Below, one piece after another: positions 768 to 62,891 of a stretch of 64,000 nt of DNA. The notes below the pieces were generated by a model that saw nothing but the letters and a program-made list of their open reading frames with translations, was not told where the DNA came from and did not search any database. The position numbers were made by a program, and so were the translations under genes. Source of the stretch: a virus; IMG/VR virus record IMGVR_UViG_3300019776_000212, positions 1 to 64,000 of that record, one strand, 5' to 3'. Positions within the stretch are counted from its first letter, which is position 1, and every line of letters begins with the position of its first letter.

Positions 768-1103
768 TTATTTCTTACCGCCGAACAGTGCAAAAACTGG
801 AGCTGGAGTTGAATCCGAATCTGGAAGCTCCCCATCACCACCTTCTGCCCTCTGTTCAGCTAGAATCAAAGCCTTATCAGCCTTGAGCATTTCCATATAT
901 AGTTTTGTTAGGTCCATGGCCATCTTGAATTCTTTCTCAGGTGTCATGTCCGTTGTTGTTTGTTGCAGTTCGATCATACGCTCAACAGCGGGACCGAAAG
1001 CCTTGCGTAGAAGGATCAGGCCCTTGGCAAGATCAGACTTCTTAACGCCTTTAGCAGCTTGCTCAGCTAGGGTAGGTCTTCCACCCTTGTTTGGAGTAGT
1101 CAT
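768..1103 (-). CDS. putative terminase small subunit
   Basis: N-terminal KGGRPT motif, helical body, acidic C-terminus, GGAG RBS, sits upstream of the tRNA cluster; inferred from motif and position only. Confidence 0.45.
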   Translation of the reverse strand: MTTPNKGGRPTLAEQAAKGVKKSDLAKGLILLRKAFGPAVERMIELQQTTTDMTPEKEFKMAMDLTKLYMEMLKADKALILAEQRAEGGDGELPDSDSTPAPVFALFGGKK

Positions 1104-1201: not shown

Positions 1202-1230
1202 ATTGTACACCTGAAACCGCATGCTGTCAA
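1202..1230 (-). promoter_or_regulatory. sigma70-like promoter for the terminase/tRNA unit
   Basis: TTGACA-N17-TACAAT on the minus strand. Confidence 0.7.
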
Positions 1231-1258: not shown

Positions 1259-1450
1259 TCACTCAGAAGCTTTCATGGCTGTCACGCCCTCCACTGGGTT
1301 GGTTCCACCAACATACTCCCGCTCTGTGTGCGAGTTGTATGCGAGGTAGATGCAAGTGGCACACAAGTCTTCTTCTAGCCCTGTGTGTATATTTCTTCTT
1401 GGTCTATGGTATTGAGTTAGTGGATTATTGCAGCAGATACATCTGGACAT
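1259..1450 (-). CDS. small Cys-rich (zinc-ribbon) hypothetical protein
   Basis: CICC...CATC; AAGGA RBS. Confidence 0.6.
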   Translation of the reverse strand: MSRCICCNNPLTQYHRPRRNIHTGLEEDLCATCIYLAYNSHTEREYVGGTNPVEGVTAMKASE

Positions 1451-1554: not shown

Positions 1555-1855
1555 CACTCCTGCGGATGAGTTTCACATTCGGAAGGTAGAACAACCCTAA
1601 GGGATTGCCATACTCAAAATGAGCCTAAGACAAAACCTTGGGTCTACCTTCCCTGTATTCTGCGGATCGAGAACACAATCGGCCAGCATGGGCTGGAGAC
1701 GCTTTCGCGTCAGGCTCCTGTCATTCCCACAACTCTGTGGTCCCTCTACGCTATAACAGGATTCGAACTCAGCTTGGGCGTGTAGAAACTCTTCGTACCC
1801 ATAATCTCAGTGGCCGGTGAGTGTGCCTTTCGGCTGACATATCTCTCCACTGACT
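1555..1855 (-). ncRNA. candidate structured non-coding RNA
   Basis: Directly downstream of a minus-strand TTGACA..TACTAT promoter (about 1860-1888); several stems, two GAAA tetraloops, no credible ORF. Confidence 0.55.
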
Positions 1856-1894
1856 TTCCAATAGTAACCCCGAACCTGTCCAGTGTCAAGGCTA

Positions 1895-1924
1895 TTGACA
1901 AGAATTACCACAGTGGTGTACAAT
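1895..1924 (+). promoter_or_regulatory. sigma70-like promoter, divergent from the leftward promoter at about 1860-1888
   Basis: TTGACA-N18-TACAAT. Confidence 0.65.
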
Positions 1925-4268: not shown

Positions 4269-4725
4269 TATCTTGCATCTCGTGCAAGAAGCCTATGACG
4301 CTGTGGGGCACTTTCTGCTGGAAGTGTCATCACTGTAACAACACAATTTGGATTGGGAGGTTTGGGCCACAATGAAGATAATCCCAAACACACCGGGCGG
4401 CTGGATTGATTTCGTCCAGAAGGTGAAAGAACACATCGGCAGAGACTTGACAGACCTTGAGTACAAGGAGATCATGCAGCTCTACGTTAAAGGAAAGAAA
4501 CCGGAGGATTTTAAGAATGACACTGAATGAACTGGCTGTAATCATCGAGCGGGCCATCGGCAACGGACATGGTGAAGCACAGGTTGTGTACGGGGACGTA
4601 AATGGCTACGTCCGAGCTGGCAGTGACAGCGTAGGTATTGGGTTTGTAGAAGACCCTTCCGAGTATATAATGGAACCTTGTGATGAAGATTGCGAAACGG
4701 CCACGAAAGTGTTCGTAATCACCGA

Positions 4726-5142
4726 ATGAAGGCTAAGCACATCAGGGCATACATGGAGTGTGCCCATGCCTTTGCTCGTTGCAGCACAGCGACAAGACTT
4801 CAAGTTGGGGCTGTGCTCGTGAAGCAGAACCGCATCATCTCATGTGGCTATAATGCCCTCCCAGAGGCTCTGGATGGCCCCTGTGAAGACGAAAATGGCA
4901 ATACAAGACCTGAGGTACGTCATGCAGAGGAAAACGCTCTTAGGGCGCTTGTACGCTCCCCTGAGAGCGCTGTAGGGGCCACAATGTTCGTTACACACTG
5001 GTGCTGCTTGCAATGTGCAATTGATGTTGTTGACGCAGGTGTCGTAACCGTGTATGTTGACAATCCGTACCGAAGCCCTGATGGGCTGAGATATCTCAGG
5101 GATAACGAAGTGGAGGTGATTCACTATGAAGATCCAGTTTAA
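4726..5142 (+). CDS. dCMP deaminase
   Basis: VGAVLVK...GYN...HAEENA...THWCCLQCA zinc-deaminase motifs. Confidence 0.9.
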   Translation: MKAKHIRAYMECAHAFARCSTATRLQVGAVLVKQNRIISCGYNALPEALDGPCEDENGNTRPEVRHAEENALRALVRSPESAVGATMFVTHWCCLQCAIDVVDAGVVTVYVDNPYRSPDGLRYLRDNEVEVIHYEDPV

Positions 5143-5449
5143 TGTGGAGTTGGCAGATAAGCTCGGGCTCTCTGAGGAAACTCGGGAAGAGTTGAAGAAT
5201 GTGTACGATCACCTGTCGGATGCACTCACGAACCCAGATAACTACGAGAACGTGCCCGCGCACGTTACAGATCTGGAGTCCACGCTCCAGATGTTGTGGG
5301 GTTTCCCGACAGACAAGAAGTTCCACTATTACAACCTGCACATCAAGGGTTGTCGTTGCCCTGAGCTTGACAACATGGAAATGGTGGGGCACTCCGAGCG
5401 CCGTTTCGTTTCCGTTTCGTGTCCAATTCACAAAGGAGTAGCATGGTGA
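5126..5449 (+). CDS. hypothetical protein (Cys/His-rich C-terminus)
   Basis: GCRCPELDN...SCPIH; overlapping start/stop chain. Confidence 0.65.
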   Translation: MKIQFNVELADKLGLSEETREELKNVYDHLSDALTNPDNYENVPAHVTDLESTLQMLWGFPTDKKFHYYNLHIKGCRCPELDNMEMVGHSERRFVSVSCPIHKGVAW

Positions 5450-5681
5450 GTAAAGACGTATCTGGTAAAGAGTTGAATGTGGGCGATACCGTAGCGTATT
5501 GCCTTGGTGGCAAGGGGACGCAGATGCGGACTGGCAAAGTGTTGCGTATGACTGGCAAGTCTGTGATCATCGCAGCCAAAGACCTTCGGTATCGTTGGGA
5601 TGGTCGTGGTTACACTGAGTTCACTGATGACGTTGAAGTGATTCGTGCATTCGACGCTGTGTCGAAAGTGGAGGTGGTTCA

Positions 5682-6932
5682 ATGAGCGAGGTATTTCGTC
5701 AGAAGCTGTACGGTCTTGAGAAAGGTGGCAAGTACAAGGTGTGGGAGATTTTCGTCCTGAACCACGGTGATGAGTCTGAAATGACAATCTATCACGGTCA
5801 GGAAGGTGGGGCACAGACCCAAAAGACTGACATGTTTGACCTTGGCAATCAAGGTCGTGGGCACTACGAACAAGCTGTGTTCGAAGCTCGTGCACGCATC
5901 AAGAAGCAACTGGACAAGAACTACCGCGCCACCAAAGAAGAACTGACCGATCTGCCAGTGCTGGCGATGCTGTCTAAAGACCACACCAAAGATGGGAAGG
6001 ACGAAACTGTAGAGCAAGGCGTATACACCTCCCGTAAGTTGGATGGTGTGCGTTGCTTGGCCAAGTGCGTGAAAAAGCTGAGTGGTGTTGATATCATCAT
6101 TGAGTCTCGCACTGGACAGCCGTATGATGTTCCACATATTGTGGCAGAGCTTCGTAAGTTTATGAAGCCGGGTGACATTCTGGATGGCGAGCTTTACGTG
6201 CATGGACCAAGCCTGCAAGAAATCACCTCTGCGGTGAAGCGTACTGACGCCCAAGAGAAATACAGCAAGGCTTTCACGAAGCTGGAGAAAGCTATCACTG
6301 CCTTTGAGAAAACTGGCAAACCGTATGCGAACAAGCTGCGGGAAGATGCGGCAGAAGCCTTGCACATCGCCACGATTCGTGACATGCTTGAGTTCCACGT
6401 GTTTGACCTCGTGGAAATGGAGGTGCCGTTCAGCCATCGTGTGTTCCGTCTGAACAAGTATGCTGAGCAGAATTTTGTTGACTTCGTCCACATTGTTGTT
6501 GTACCTTACGACTACGCTGATAGCATTGAAGACCTCAATGATCTTCTGAAACGGTATGTGAACGAAGGCTACGAAGGCTTGATGTACCGCACACAAGATG
6601 GCCTGTACGAAAGCGGTAAGCGTTCGTCTGGTTTGTGGAAGTACAAGCTGTTCTTCGATGAAGAGTTCAAAATCATTGGAGTAGGTGTTGACAAGCAGGG
6701 GTACGCTGTGTTCCAATTGCTCAATAACGTAAACGATGAAGAGTTCAACTGCGTACTGGGCGACTACAACTGGCGTACAGAAGCAGCGAAGCAAAAAGAG
6801 CTTTACATCGGTAAGTGGATGACTGTACAATACCAGTCACGATACAAAGGAACACTGCTTCCGCAGTTTCCGAGTGGAAAAGTGATTCGAGAGGGCGTCG
6901 TCAAGAACGGCATCTTCACACCAACTGAATAA
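5682..6932 (+). CDS. ATP-dependent DNA ligase
   Basis: SRKLDGVRC (KxDG), LDGELY, FHVFDL, EGLMYR, KYK, PQFP. Confidence 0.93.
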   Translation: MSEVFRQKLYGLEKGGKYKVWEIFVLNHGDESEMTIYHGQEGGAQTQKTDMFDLGNQGRGHYEQAVFEARARIKKQLDKNYRATKEELTDLPVLAMLSKDHTKDGKDETVEQGVYTSRKLDGVRCLAKCVKKLSGVDIIIESRTGQPYDVPHIVAELRKFMKPGDILDGELYVHGPSLQEITSAVKRTDAQEKYSKAFTKLEKAITAFEKTGKPYANKLREDAAEALHIATIRDMLEFHVFDLVEMEVPFSHRVFRLNKYAEQNFVDFVHIVVVPYDYADSIEDLNDLLKRYVNEGYEGLMYRTQDGLYESGKRSSGLWKYKLFFDEEFKIIGVGVDKQGYAVFQLLNNVNDEEFNCVLGDYNWRTEAAKQKELYIGKWMTVQYQSRYKGTLLPQFPSGKVIREGVVKNGIFTPTE

Positions 6933-6943
6933 GGAGAAATAGA

Positions 6944-7345
6944 ATGACCCAATTTGTACTGAAAGACACCGTTCGTGCACAGATCCAATCTGTCATCAAC
7001 TTCATGAACGTTCTGGGCTTCCAGCCTCTGCGTAAAAACCTGAGCTTTGTTAACATTGCCGACGGTAATAGTGCAGCAGCTGTCGTAAGTCTGGCAACAG
7101 CCACCAAGCTGCACAACAGCACCCTGCAAGACTGGAATCTGGTTGACGGAACCGAGATTTGTGTGCACACTGGCACCAACCTGCAAATCGGCTGGAACAT
7201 TCAAACTGTCCTGCTGGCAGATGCATCTCGACTGGTTGAGAAGAGCAAAGTGTCTGTTGACCGACGTGGCAACATCATCATGAATAGCGAAAACGCTCAT
7301 CTTGTGAAAGCTGCAAACCAACGGGTACAGACCCTGCTGGGTTGA
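6944..7345 (+). CDS. hypothetical protein
   Basis: AAGGAG RBS, phage-like codon usage. Confidence 0.7.
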   Translation: MTQFVLKDTVRAQIQSVINFMNVLGFQPLRKNLSFVNIADGNSAAAVVSLATATKLHNSTLQDWNLVDGTEICVHTGTNLQIGWNIQTVLLADASRLVEKSKVSVDRRGNIIMNSENAHLVKAANQRVQTLLG

Positions 7346-41732: not shown

Positions 41733-42728
41733 GAAACTCTCCTTATTTGATTACAATTTGACCCATAAGGGCGGTGAATGGGATAACTTTAGTCCCGAGG
41801 TGATCACTATTACGATCCTTGAGAATGTCGATTACAACGTGTCCGTCCTCTGTAAGCTTTACGATTCGGTAAACCATCCCAGCCCGCTTGGCATGATTGA
41901 ACTGATTACAATTCATTTGTTCACGCATCTGAATCCCCTGTCTGTGTTTGATGTTGTGTATCTTACTTTGCTGCTTTCACTGCGTCAAGCGCTTTTTGGA
42001 ATTTATCTCGTGCTTCGTGCAATTCAATAGCAGCTTGCACAAGCTCTTGTTCCAAGCTTGACAGGAAGCCCACTGGGACAGATTTTACGGGCTCGATCAA
42101 CTCAAGAGATGTTGCCAGCCATCGGGTAAAGTCTCCATCGCCAAGCTGCACCCGAACCATCTGCACACCTCCAGCCCCAATGGTGTTCTCGGCAACGACG
42201 CCAACTTTCCCGAAGAAAGTTGAAGGATAGATAATTTTCACTTTGTCGCCTACAGTAAATTTGTTCATTCCTTTTCTCCTTTATGCCCATGCCTTGAAGT
42301 AGTCTGTAGTGTATGTGGTGCCACCTCCGTCTGTCAAGCTCTTTAACACTTGGACAACACCCTTAAGTGTTACGTTGTTTCCGTCAACAAACAGTGCATC
42401 ACCCTCACGAGGTGCACAAAGTGTTATGTATTTGATGTTCTTGTCAGGCCAGAACATCAGTTGGAAGCCTGCCCGTTGGGTGACATTCAGGGTGAGGCTT
42501 GGCCTTACCAAGCACTGTCAACTCTACGAGTATGTTCCACTCCACCTTCCAAACAGGCGATCCATCTTCAATGTCACGCCAAGCTTTTACACATTTACCG
42601 GATGCAAGGAGGTGTGAGACACGCTCCGATGCGGCACTGAACATATAGTATTTCTCGAATACACCCATAAAAATAGCCTCCATTGTGGAAGACGTTGTGT
42701 CTTCGTAATGGAGGCTAGTCTACTCAGC

Positions 42729-43082
42729 TTACGGGTGGCCGTCAAGACCTTTTACGTAAGATTCGAAAGCAAGTTTTGTTGTCGTTTGCACGTAGTCGAA
42801 ATTGGCATCCTTGACAAGTGCTTGGCTGTTCCAAGCCAGAAGCTCTGCACCCATCTCAGTTTCGAAGTAGGCTTGGTTTGTACGCTTCGTTTCAAGGTCA
42901 CGGGCGTTTTCTCCTGTGTACATGCCGTTGGCGATTACACGGCTCTGTACAGGAGTCACATCGAAGTTGAAGTCAGGGATGGAAGCGTCCCCAAGCATCT
43001 TGAAGTTGGTGCCAGTGTCGCTTGTAGTGACTGTAAATAGGCCACTGGTTGGTAGGGTTGTTACTGTGATTACTGGAGTCAT
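42729..43082 (-). CDS. hypothetical protein
   Basis: AAGGA RBS. Confidence 0.6.
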   Translation of the reverse strand: MTPVITVTTLPTSGLFTVTTSDTGTNFKMLGDASIPDFNFDVTPVQSRVIANGMYTGENARDLETKRTNQAYFETEMGAELLAWNSQALVKDANFDYVQTTTKLAFESYVKGLDGHP

Positions 43083-61947: not shown

Positions 61948-62223
61948 TTACCTCCCGTAGTACTGCCACATGACAGCGTTACAATAAGCGTGGACTGCAC
62001 CCTCTGTCAGCCCGGTTTTGTGGTCGTGTTGCAGATGTACAGGATATTTAAGGAAGTTCGGTGGAAGCCGCTTCCAATTGATATCCAGCAATGCTACAGC
62101 TCTTGGCACTGGTTTGTCAAGTGGTGATGAGCAAAAGAGGCAGATGCCCTTCTGGTACTTTACATACTCTTCCCGCTTAAGACGTCTCTCATAAGGTGTG
62201 AGGTTATCGTAGATTACGTGCAT
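61948..62223 (-). CDS. endonuclease VII-like protein
   Basis: Q.GICLFC...HDHKTG..G.VH..CN. Confidence 0.7.
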   Translation of the reverse strand: MHVIYDNLTPYERRLKREEYVKYQKGICLFCSSPLDKPVPRAVALLDINWKRLPPNFLKYPVHLQHDHKTGLTEGAVHAYCNAVMWQYYGR

Positions 62224-62891
62224 ATTTCTCTCCTTTATTGCTTGCTTTTGATCTTGCTCTTAAATCCACAATGGGTTTCGCAGCAGAAGGCACATCTATC
62301 CCAAGGAACGCCATACACAGTGAAGTGCCTAAGACGTACCTTTGGATGTACCTCATGTCATCGTTCCACAATTGGGATCGCTGGCAGCCTACATGTGTAG
62401 GAATTGGCTGAGAGCCTTCCCTCGTCAGAGGTCATCACTACGCTGTTCTCTCATAAACATCTCAGCTTGGCCAGTAGCCCACTCTTCATAGCCATACACT
62501 GTCAGGTCGGTGAGGGATGGCTTACGCCGCGACATATCTCCCCTGACACATGAGCGATATTACCATAGAAAATTCTTTCGTCAAGGGGGTTGACTGGTTT
62601 GTTCGATGGTGTATGATGGCCTCACATTCAACAGTAAGGAGTAACTATGAAATACGAATTCCACATCCCAACAGACAAGAACACCGACTTCTTCAACGGG
62701 CCTGTAATCTTCCGTGAAGACGGTAGCTTCATGGCATTCTGCAACATGCATGGTCGTGGCCAAGCTTGTGTGGACGAAGTGTCTACTGCTATTAGCTGGG
62801 GCGACGGCTGGCTGCCAGCCGAAGAAGACAAAGACGTCCGTAAGCAAGTGGCCGTTGAGGGTATGTTTGAGATTTTCGTTTTGGAGGTGAA

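Follow-up and report, generated by a model that had tools for sequence, protein, structure and literature searches.

What occupies the 500-nt gap that separates plus-strand from minus-strand genes near the left end of this phage genome, and what could it do there? The window analyzed here comprises the first 64 kb (64,000 nucleotides) of a virus record that is 96,211 bp long and carries direct terminal repeats. The source genome is an Otagovirus-like Pseudomonas myovirus, and its closest annotated relatives are the vB_PpuM phages of P. putida, with ~86% identity across the locus. A preliminary description, made from the sequence alone, had proposed that the gap specifies a highly structured RNA of about 300 nt with its own minus-strand promoter. 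Both parts of that proposal stand: fold z-score, conservation and covariation agree on the structured RNA, and a promoter scan found TTGACA-17-TACTAT, which is conserved in 14 phages. The features of the locus, from right to left, are these:

From 1951, plus strand: the plus-strand genes, on the right side of the gap.
1895-1924, plus strand: opposing promoter TTGACA-18-TACAAT, back to back with the promoter of the RNA.
1889..1861, minus strand: promoter of the RNA, TTGACA-17-TACTAT (promoter scan; 10/12 and 11/12 matches for the back-to-back pair).
1853..1560, minus strand: RNA copy 1, ~295 nt, conserved, directly behind the sigma-70-type promoter.
1450..1259, minus strand: zinc-ribbon ORF of 63 aa (CxxC...CxxC), PHROG 10364, with no Pfam match.
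1103..768, minus strand: ORF of 111 aa.

The minus-strand order to the left of the gap continues from the zinc-ribbon and 111-aa ORFs to tRNA-Val, an HNH endonuclease ORF and tRNA-Lys. The HNH endonuclease-like ORF (298-678, minus) lies between tRNA-Val and tRNA-Lys (230-306, minus), with its stop end reaching a few bases into the tRNA-Lys gene. The downstream genes had also been read as a terminase unit, and here the preliminary description was mistaken: the 111-aa ORF carries no terminase signature. Gene order is constant in the relatives: leftward genes come first, then the gap and a small ORF, and beyond these an ORF of ~106 aa and the tRNA cluster.

The gap is not a protein gene. Stops fall in all six frames in each of the 16 sequences printed, no stop-free stretch exceeds 98 of ~100 codons in any of 32 homologues, and 411 of the 505 gap runs inside the alignment have a length that is not a multiple of three. 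These stops and frame-breaking gaps rule out a coding sequence and uphold the earlier judgment that no credible ORF is present. Several GenBank records draw hypothetical CDSs across the RNA, a point that matters for annotation; in three of them these CDSs disagree in strand and place. Nor is the element a catalogued RNA. The Rfam 15 covariance models gave no match at E<=10 in 1300-2100, only tRNAs at gathering score in the whole window, and nothing inside the element at E<=1 in 12 diverse homologues. The preliminary description, which recognized no family and proposed this comparison, was right on the point. The candidates set aside for want of an Rfam 15 match include tmRNA, RNase P, 6S, T-box, riboswitches, known ribozymes, GOLLD, ROOL and HEARO, and ARAGORN reports only tRNA-Lys and tRNA-Val, both elsewhere in the window. 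A literature search likewise found no description of such an RNA. With no covering family, model or paper found, the RNA class is new.

Conservation delimits the element closely. A blastn search of 50,697 phage records found the copy 1 segment in 46 Pseudomonas-phage records at 69-90% identity, with similarity bounded at ~1849 and ~1567 and the flanks not included in most records. In an alignment of 14 phages both hexamers of the copy 1 promoter and the opposing -35 are kept, and sequence conservation starts a few bases past the -10 element. At two loci, the second of which is described below, the first helix, P1, coincides at its 5' end with the predicted +1 of a conserved, strong promoter of the host (sigma-70) type. 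At both of these loci (1861-1924; 62557-62617) the -35 hexamers of the back-to-back, near-consensus sigma-70 promoters lie ~5 bp apart, and the back-to-back layout is kept in relatives, L055 included.

The transcript is predicted to fold elaborately. The minus strand folds with a z-score of -3.6 (0 of 100 shuffles fold as well), compared with -2.9 for the plus strand, and RNAalifold on the 14-phage alignment predicts 61 pairs, 23 of them with compensatory changes. The parts of copy 1 are as follows:

1683..1853, minus strand: 5' domain, comprising P1-P7 and the pseudoknot, which carries the family's invariant words.
1853-1847/1813-1807, minus strand: P1, the 5' stem.
1834-1825, minus strand: P2, a GAAA hairpin.
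1786-1782/1749-1745, minus strand: pseudoknot, the first of two crossing helices.
1768-1760, minus strand: T-loop-like word.
1761-1753/1724-1716, minus strand: P4, the second crossing helix.
1740-1727 and 1696-1683, minus strand: hairpins P5 and P7.
1711-1698, minus strand: P6, a GAAA hairpin.
1653..1678, minus strand: hairpin P8, whose stem covaries and whose apical part holds repeat copy X1.
1581..1652, minus strand: long hairpin P9, with a basal 10-bp helix (1652-1643/1590-1581).
1560..1580, minus strand: 3' linker and repeat copy X2, the end point of family conservation.

Covariation was counted over 15 curated helices (P1 to P10 plus the pseudoknot) in 32 distinct homologues. Standard pairs fill 86.4% of cells, compared with 38-43% when the partners are slid by 1-3 columns. 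Two-sided changes occur at 46 of 78 pairs (31.6 in shuffles); the covariation score is 0.356 (0.131 in shuffles), and none of 500 shuffles reaches any of the five measures. P1, P3, P4, P6, P7 and P9 are 92-100% paired, and helices 1, 3, 4, 5, 7 and 8 of the 5' domain, likewise paired in 92-100% of cells, each have 3-6 pairs with two-sided changes. P5 and P8 scored weakly in the count over 32 homologues because MAFFT misaligned these variable hairpins; their covariation is visible by eye in the 14-phage alignment. The hairpin around X2 is poorly supported, with 52% of cells paired in the 32 homologues. U-G and G-U pairs that are near-invariant, present in 28 to 31 of 32 sequences, identify the minus strand as the RNA strand. 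We regard it as practically certain that this is a genuine structured RNA family.

The helices read in the first inspection (5' stem, GAAA hairpins, other hairpins and 10-bp helix) are all where it had placed them. The proposal that two crossing helices form a pseudoknot is borne out by covariation in the pseudoknot helix, which links the P3 loop to the P4 loop, is 97.5% paired and covaries at four of its five pairs; of the longer first crossing helix originally drawn, the 5-bp core covaries but the remainder does not. Similarly, the T-loop-like word is present at 1768-1760 but is conserved only as a looser U-C-N-A-A-U-C pattern. P2 and P6 are often capped by GAAA, and the internal loop of P9 is invariant, with CUUAGG (~1629-1624) facing UAUGG (1612-1608). 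We take this loop to resemble the 11-nt GAAA-tetraloop receptor, and together with the GAAA loops such a resemblance would mean that P9 docks on the 5' domain.

The RNA is not confined to the gap. The preliminary description overlooked a second copy at 62.5 kb, with the following surroundings:

62590-62617, plus strand: opposing promoter, back to back with the promoter of copy 2.
62557..62584, minus strand: copy 2 promoter TTGACG-16-TAATAT with a TG extension.
62547..62265, minus strand: RNA copy 2, a paralogue of copy 1 (62541..62267 in a profile search with 32 sequences, nhmmer E 2e-37).
62372-62365 and 62272-62265, minus strand: repeat word ATTGTGGA of copy 2.
62223..61948, minus strand: endonuclease-VII-like ORF of 91 aa (Pfam PF02945), preceded by a ribosome-binding site, the first gene past copy 2.

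No further copy occurs in the 96,211-bp genome, whose two copies share the minus strand. Phage KoPa-4 has the same two, at 88.3 kb, where the copy precedes the tRNA cluster and structural genes, and at 26.6 kb, where it precedes a 39-kb block with primase/helicase and polymerase. Two copies on one strand are also found in each of phiPsa374, PE09, Pyxpy01 and XD2, and in four of five related complete genomes checked the two same-strand copies each stand behind back-to-back divergent promoters. When copy 2 was used as the blastn query, 39 records matched, of which ~29 hold a copy-2 homologue; the other matches fall on copy 1. Elsewhere in the window, at ~42640-42730 on the minus strand, a promoter-like TTGACG-17-TAGACT is followed by a 10-bp stem enclosing a second hairpin and a U-run. 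This site may be a small RNA or an intergenic terminator, and at the homologous site KoPa-4 has an intergenic terminator only.

Pattern scans followed by a profile extended the family to soil, freshwater and marine phage contigs, with members in 20 contigs of IMG/VR and in some two dozen from metagenomes. It also occurs in two MAG-binned contigs, L040 and L041, the only profile-confirmed ones from a GTDB pattern scan whose six matches compare with ~6.5 expected by chance. The most distant members align in the 5' domain alone, and its core words persist in marine and freshwater contigs as well as in Pseudomonas phages, a breadth that points to a universal partner. In L041, L057 and L061 a GC-rich hairpin with a U-run stands 15-20 nt before P1, with no recognizable sigma-70 promoter between this hairpin and P1.

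What happens downstream of the RNA bears most directly on its function. Neither copy 1 nor copy 2 is followed by an intrinsic terminator, and the same holds for more than 40 Pseudomonas-phage copies. What comes next in these >40 copies is a linker of ~30-85 nt, rich in A and poor in G, and then a ribosome-binding site with an ORF. With no terminator, and with the predicted transcript of copy 1 entering the zinc-ribbon ORF, the RNA starts out, at the least, as a 5' leader. The 70 nt past the RNA are 44% A, 14.5% G and 19% C (~67% A+T), and a strong Shine-Dalgarno sequence comes after them; a Rho-loading site past X2 was considered and set aside, since the tail is A-rich and G-poor but not C-rich. 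Further sigma-70-like promoters lie downstream of copy 1 (1230..1202) and of copy 2 (62120, 61515, 60963).

The zinc-ribbon ORF accompanies copy 1 in nearly all relatives, the distant L040 included; it is left unannotated in phiPsa374, Y1-MI, UAVern, PHB09 and PPSC2. In many type-1 relatives (L005, L006, L011, L012, L019 and others; L002:2840-2865) a strong, conserved Shine-Dalgarno sequence, AAGGAG, stands before this ORF, and 5 nt past it comes a conserved mini-ORF or start-stop element, an ATG with one or two codons and a stop, that is absent from the window's own lineage. The first gene past copy 2 varies among phages. It is the endonuclease-VII-like ORF in the window, a 65-aa ORF in L014-L022, and in KoPa-4 (L034:26925-27227) and L028 an unrelated protein of ~100-105 aa, which by eye we take to be DUF4326-like. 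The idea that related endonuclease-VII-like proteins follow both paralogues was discarded on this variation and a BLASTP E of 0.33. Neighbours in distant lineages include helicases, a lytic transglycosylase and terminase. The large terminase downstream of the RNA in L041, a contig from a Marinobacter MAG (4712-7156, plus strand), appears to carry an intein-like insertion, with weak Pfam matches. Given the variable first gene behind copy 2 and in distant lineages, the RNA is not tied to one protein.

These observations lead us to favor, tentatively and at a little under an even chance, the view that the RNA represents a new class of cis-acting leader acting on its own transcription unit. The conserved promoter, P1 at the predicted start and the strong covariation with a pseudoknot argue for it, as do the linker into a ribosome-binding site and ORF without a terminator, and the two same-strand paralogues at back-to-back promoters with a varying first gene. 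More specifically, and with clearly less confidence, we suggest by analogy with HK022 put RNA that it might control RNA polymerase elongation or termination. We envision a scenario in which the conserved 5' domain would engage machinery common to all hosts, with RNA polymerase in the act of transcription as the most plausible partner, as for put; the 3' module (X1-P9-X2) would then decide what becomes of the complex or transcript on entry into the first gene. Several points weigh against this proposal. The marine relative L041 has an intrinsic terminator, a stem with a U-run, ~35 nt past X2, and several marine and freshwater relatives with an upstream terminator-like hairpin and no clear sigma-70 promoter better fit a free-standing RNA. 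With further promoters downstream, there is no obvious need for read-through of a long operon. The GNRA loops, the receptor-like loop and the pseudoknot are features seen more typically in ribozymes or RNP scaffolds than in the small put element, and a put-like model gives no reason for X occurring twice.

A leader could also be a riboswitch, in which the 5' domain would bind a metabolite or ion reporting host state and so gate the first early genes. Its position in a 5' UTR, its pseudoknotted core of ~170 nt and its invariant junction nucleotides speak for this reading. The genes downstream are, however, functionally incoherent, there is neither a terminator nor an expression platform that sequesters the Shine-Dalgarno sequence, which lies in the unstructured tail, and the repeat X is left unexplained. 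We consider a riboswitch very improbable.

Any account of a cis-acting leader has to deal with X. The preliminary description had listed a duplicated ATCCGCAG, which is indeed present at 1667-1660 and 1567-1560, without recognizing it as the key anomaly. Each RNA carries a word of 7-14 nt twice, in identical form, flanking the long hairpin P9: X1 in the apical part of P8 and X2 12-14 nt past P9, where conservation stops. Among 45 distinct full-length copies, 44 have X twice over at least 7 nt and 43 over at least 8 nt, with up to 14 identical bases and a spacing of 75-116 nt between the two. The word itself is arbitrary. Across 47 copies (three added to the first 45) there are 21 different 7-nt cores, and close relatives show single-base differences that are changed in both copies, as in AGCGTCA, AGCTTCA and AGTGTCA or in the copy-2 words AGCAGCACA of phiPsa374 and AACAGCACA of XD2. 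L018, a lineage that first seemed to be without the repeat, has GCGGACATG twice at a shifted position, and L061, L055, L058 and L041 each have their own X word, likewise shifted. L029 is the case in which the two copies have diverged, by two bases. The paralogues within one genome differ as well, with ATCCGCAG in copy 1 and ATTGTGGA in copy 2 of the window, and AGCGTCAT and AGCAGCACA in phiPsa374. We know of no counterpart in any RNA to such a concerted, sequence-arbitrary internal repeat.

Since X is matched within each RNA yet different between the two paralogues, no single sequence-specific trans factor can read X; the same pattern argues for action in cis, and whatever requires the match would have to act within one locus or one molecule. 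X does not appear to have a pairing partner. No exact 8-mer complement lies nearby, no complement of at least 6 nt (one G-U allowed) lies at a consistent place within -300..+600 of 45 copies, and complements sought genome-wide in the window and in KoPa-4 are no more frequent than chance predicts and do not lie at homologous sites. A helix between the 5' arm of P8 and sequence past X2 was also discarded: its -5.6 kcal/mol is no better than the -5.7 kcal/mol of cross-lineage controls. Models that need only two identical direct repeats may apply instead: template re-pairing, polymerase slippage across P9, or a homology-checked strand exchange or splicing-like step. We think it rather unlikely, though worth stating, that the matched X is a self-addressing device in which one copy would re-pair with template DNA, or exchange strands with the RNA, at the other.

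One form of this idea is an RNA-primed replication origin or R-loop anchor. X1, displayed in the P8 loop beside the base of P9, would pair with the DNA template strand under X2 in the immediate wake of RNA polymerase, and a persistent RNA-DNA hybrid would be seeded in the AT-rich downstream stretch, as with ColE1 RNA II; this hybrid would serve the phage's T7-like primase-helicase and PolA by priming or opening an origin. The attraction of the model is that it needs only the identity of two direct repeats, of any sequence, in cis, which is exactly what is seen, and ColE1 RNA II offers a precedent (PMC4412123). In addition, in KoPa-4 the cumulative GC skew reaches its minimum and gene orientation switches where copy 1 lies (~88 kb), both copies stand at divergent promoter pairs, the tail past X2 is rich in A+T, and the phage encodes primase/helicase, PolA and an RNase H-like gene (KoPa-4 annotation). 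However, GC skew tracks gene orientation in any case and has no feature at copy 2, stable R-loops are disfavored by the A-rich, G-poor composition of the RNA-like strand downstream, and a translated ORF begins 30-85 nt past X2. Distant members adjoin unrelated modules, and the model does not need the extra similarity 5' of X described below. An origin or R-loop anchor is distinctly unlikely in our estimate.

The repeat could instead be a DNA-level phenomenon, with X having no role in the RNA: a slippage or recombination cassette X-P9-X, or the scar of a small insertion kept alike by gene conversion. Direct repeats flanking a palindrome are the classic substrate for precise excision, and the length of X is within the range of target-site duplications. 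The 15 nt before X also resemble each other within an RNA, with a likeness score of 3.6 compared with 0.9 between lineages (44 of 47 copies), so that the repeat is ~25 nt long with identity concentrated at its 3' end; this degenerate extension 5' of X fits a DNA-level origin. So do extra partial copies. L017, L062 and L066 have a 15-nt insert just after X1 that resembles the pre-X2 linker plus another lineage's repeat word, and L014 and L028 have a third copy of X inside the P8 loop; the site is thus prone to copy errors, and these inserts suggest template switching or recombination there. Against a DNA-level account, P9 and both repeats occur in every lineage, very distant ones included, and P9 covaries as RNA; there is no copy without the unit and none in tandem, and no recombinase or transposase is annotated in KoPa-4. 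A passive scar would also drift apart; L029 has two mismatches, but 43 of 45 copies keep at least 8 identical bases. We regard this explanation as improbable.

In a further alternative, a stable trans-acting RNA (a decoy, scaffold or ribozyme) would be cut from the leader, and the identical X sites would be matched sites for processing, ligation or strand exchange, for example releasing or circularizing an X-to-X unit. Cuts at equivalent points of X1 and X2 would regenerate the same local sequence in both products. The pseudoknot, the GAAA loops and the receptor-like invariant loop of P9 are hallmarks of such folds, an intrinsic terminator closes the L041 copy, a terminator-like hairpin precedes marine copies, and GOLLD and ROOL are precedents for large phage RNAs adjoining tRNA genes. 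The >40 Pseudomonas-phage copies without a terminator speak against it, as do the failure to find a known ribozyme match and the pairing of the hairpin around X2 in barely half of the cells. Moreover, with X different between paralogues, a sequence-specific processing factor cannot serve both, and the chemistry would have to be structure-guided. We judge a processed RNA of this kind unlikely, and our preference, tentative as it is, stays with the cis-acting leader.

New classes of large RNAs supported by covariation are rare, and several earlier ones proved to be new ribozymes, riboswitches or RNP scaffolds. The RNA described here occurs widely among tailed phages of soil, plant, freshwater and marine origin; it occupies the positions of the genome that are transcribed first, with two copies per genome, and it bears on the start of replication and on the control of early transcription by the host polymerase in these phages. 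Its sequence-arbitrary matched repeat provides a genetic handle on whether the RNA re-pairs with its own template or with itself. Should X prove to be a self-addressing device, the RNA would be the first structured RNA-primed origin or R-loop anchor common to many tailed phages or, alternatively, a new ribozyme or RNP class with homology-checked strand exchange and a freely drifting specificity word.

Several known systems resemble the family in part. In the DRT2 ncRNA, a unit flanked by short direct repeats that are brought together by a stem serves as a rolling-circle template, and the RNA described here shares the repeat-flanked unit. A DRT2- or retron-type template was rejected since there is no reverse transcriptase near the RNA in the lineages examined and none is annotated in KoPa-4; a DRT2-like coding concatemer was rejected since 27 of 44 copies have no open frame (the unit is not a multiple of three) and the others are inconsistent. 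A nick motif reported for other Pseudomonas phages proved unrelated to the RNA. P4 CI RNA and P1/P7 c4 have direct repeats in the leader that flank a small folded RNA and carry lineage-specific specificity words, and in both respects, direct repeats in a leader and lineage-specific words, our family is similar. An immunity RNA of the P4 CI/P1 c4 type needs an internal complement of the repeats, and this candidate fell because none of at least 6 nt lies at a consistent place within -300..+600 of the 45 copies and none is conserved genome-wide. GOLLD and ROOL are large, ornate phage-borne RNAs of unknown function that often adjoin tRNA genes. Copy 1 likewise heads a tRNA cluster region; the RNA does not match the Rfam models of GOLLD and ROOL, however, and it is much smaller than they are, forms part of a 5' leader and, as copy 2, stands away from tRNA genes.

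To our knowledge, ColE1 RNA II is the only precedent for template re-pairing. There, formation of the primer hybrid requires that a run of rG in the RNA pair with a run of dC in the template (PMC4412123). In our family X1 equals X2 over 7-14 bases in 44 of 45 copies, and X1 is thus complementary to the template under X2. As in RNA II, where the match acts in cis, an upstream segment matches the downstream transcript, and a sigma-70 promoter drives a folded RNA of several hundred nucleotides; unlike RNA II, X is arbitrary rather than a G run, an ORF lies downstream, there is no likeness of sequence or fold, and the hybrid is hypothetical. HK022 put RNA, the analogy on which we rest the proposal of polymerase control, is ~70 nt long with two hairpins, lies directly behind the early promoters of two transcription units per genome and acts without a dedicated phage protein. 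Our RNA differs in its length of ~295 nt, its pseudoknot, its long hairpin and its matched X; it has no sequence likeness to put, and its effect on RNA polymerase is hypothetical. Like put, it is encoded directly behind the promoter of its own unit, in cis, at two transcription units per genome.
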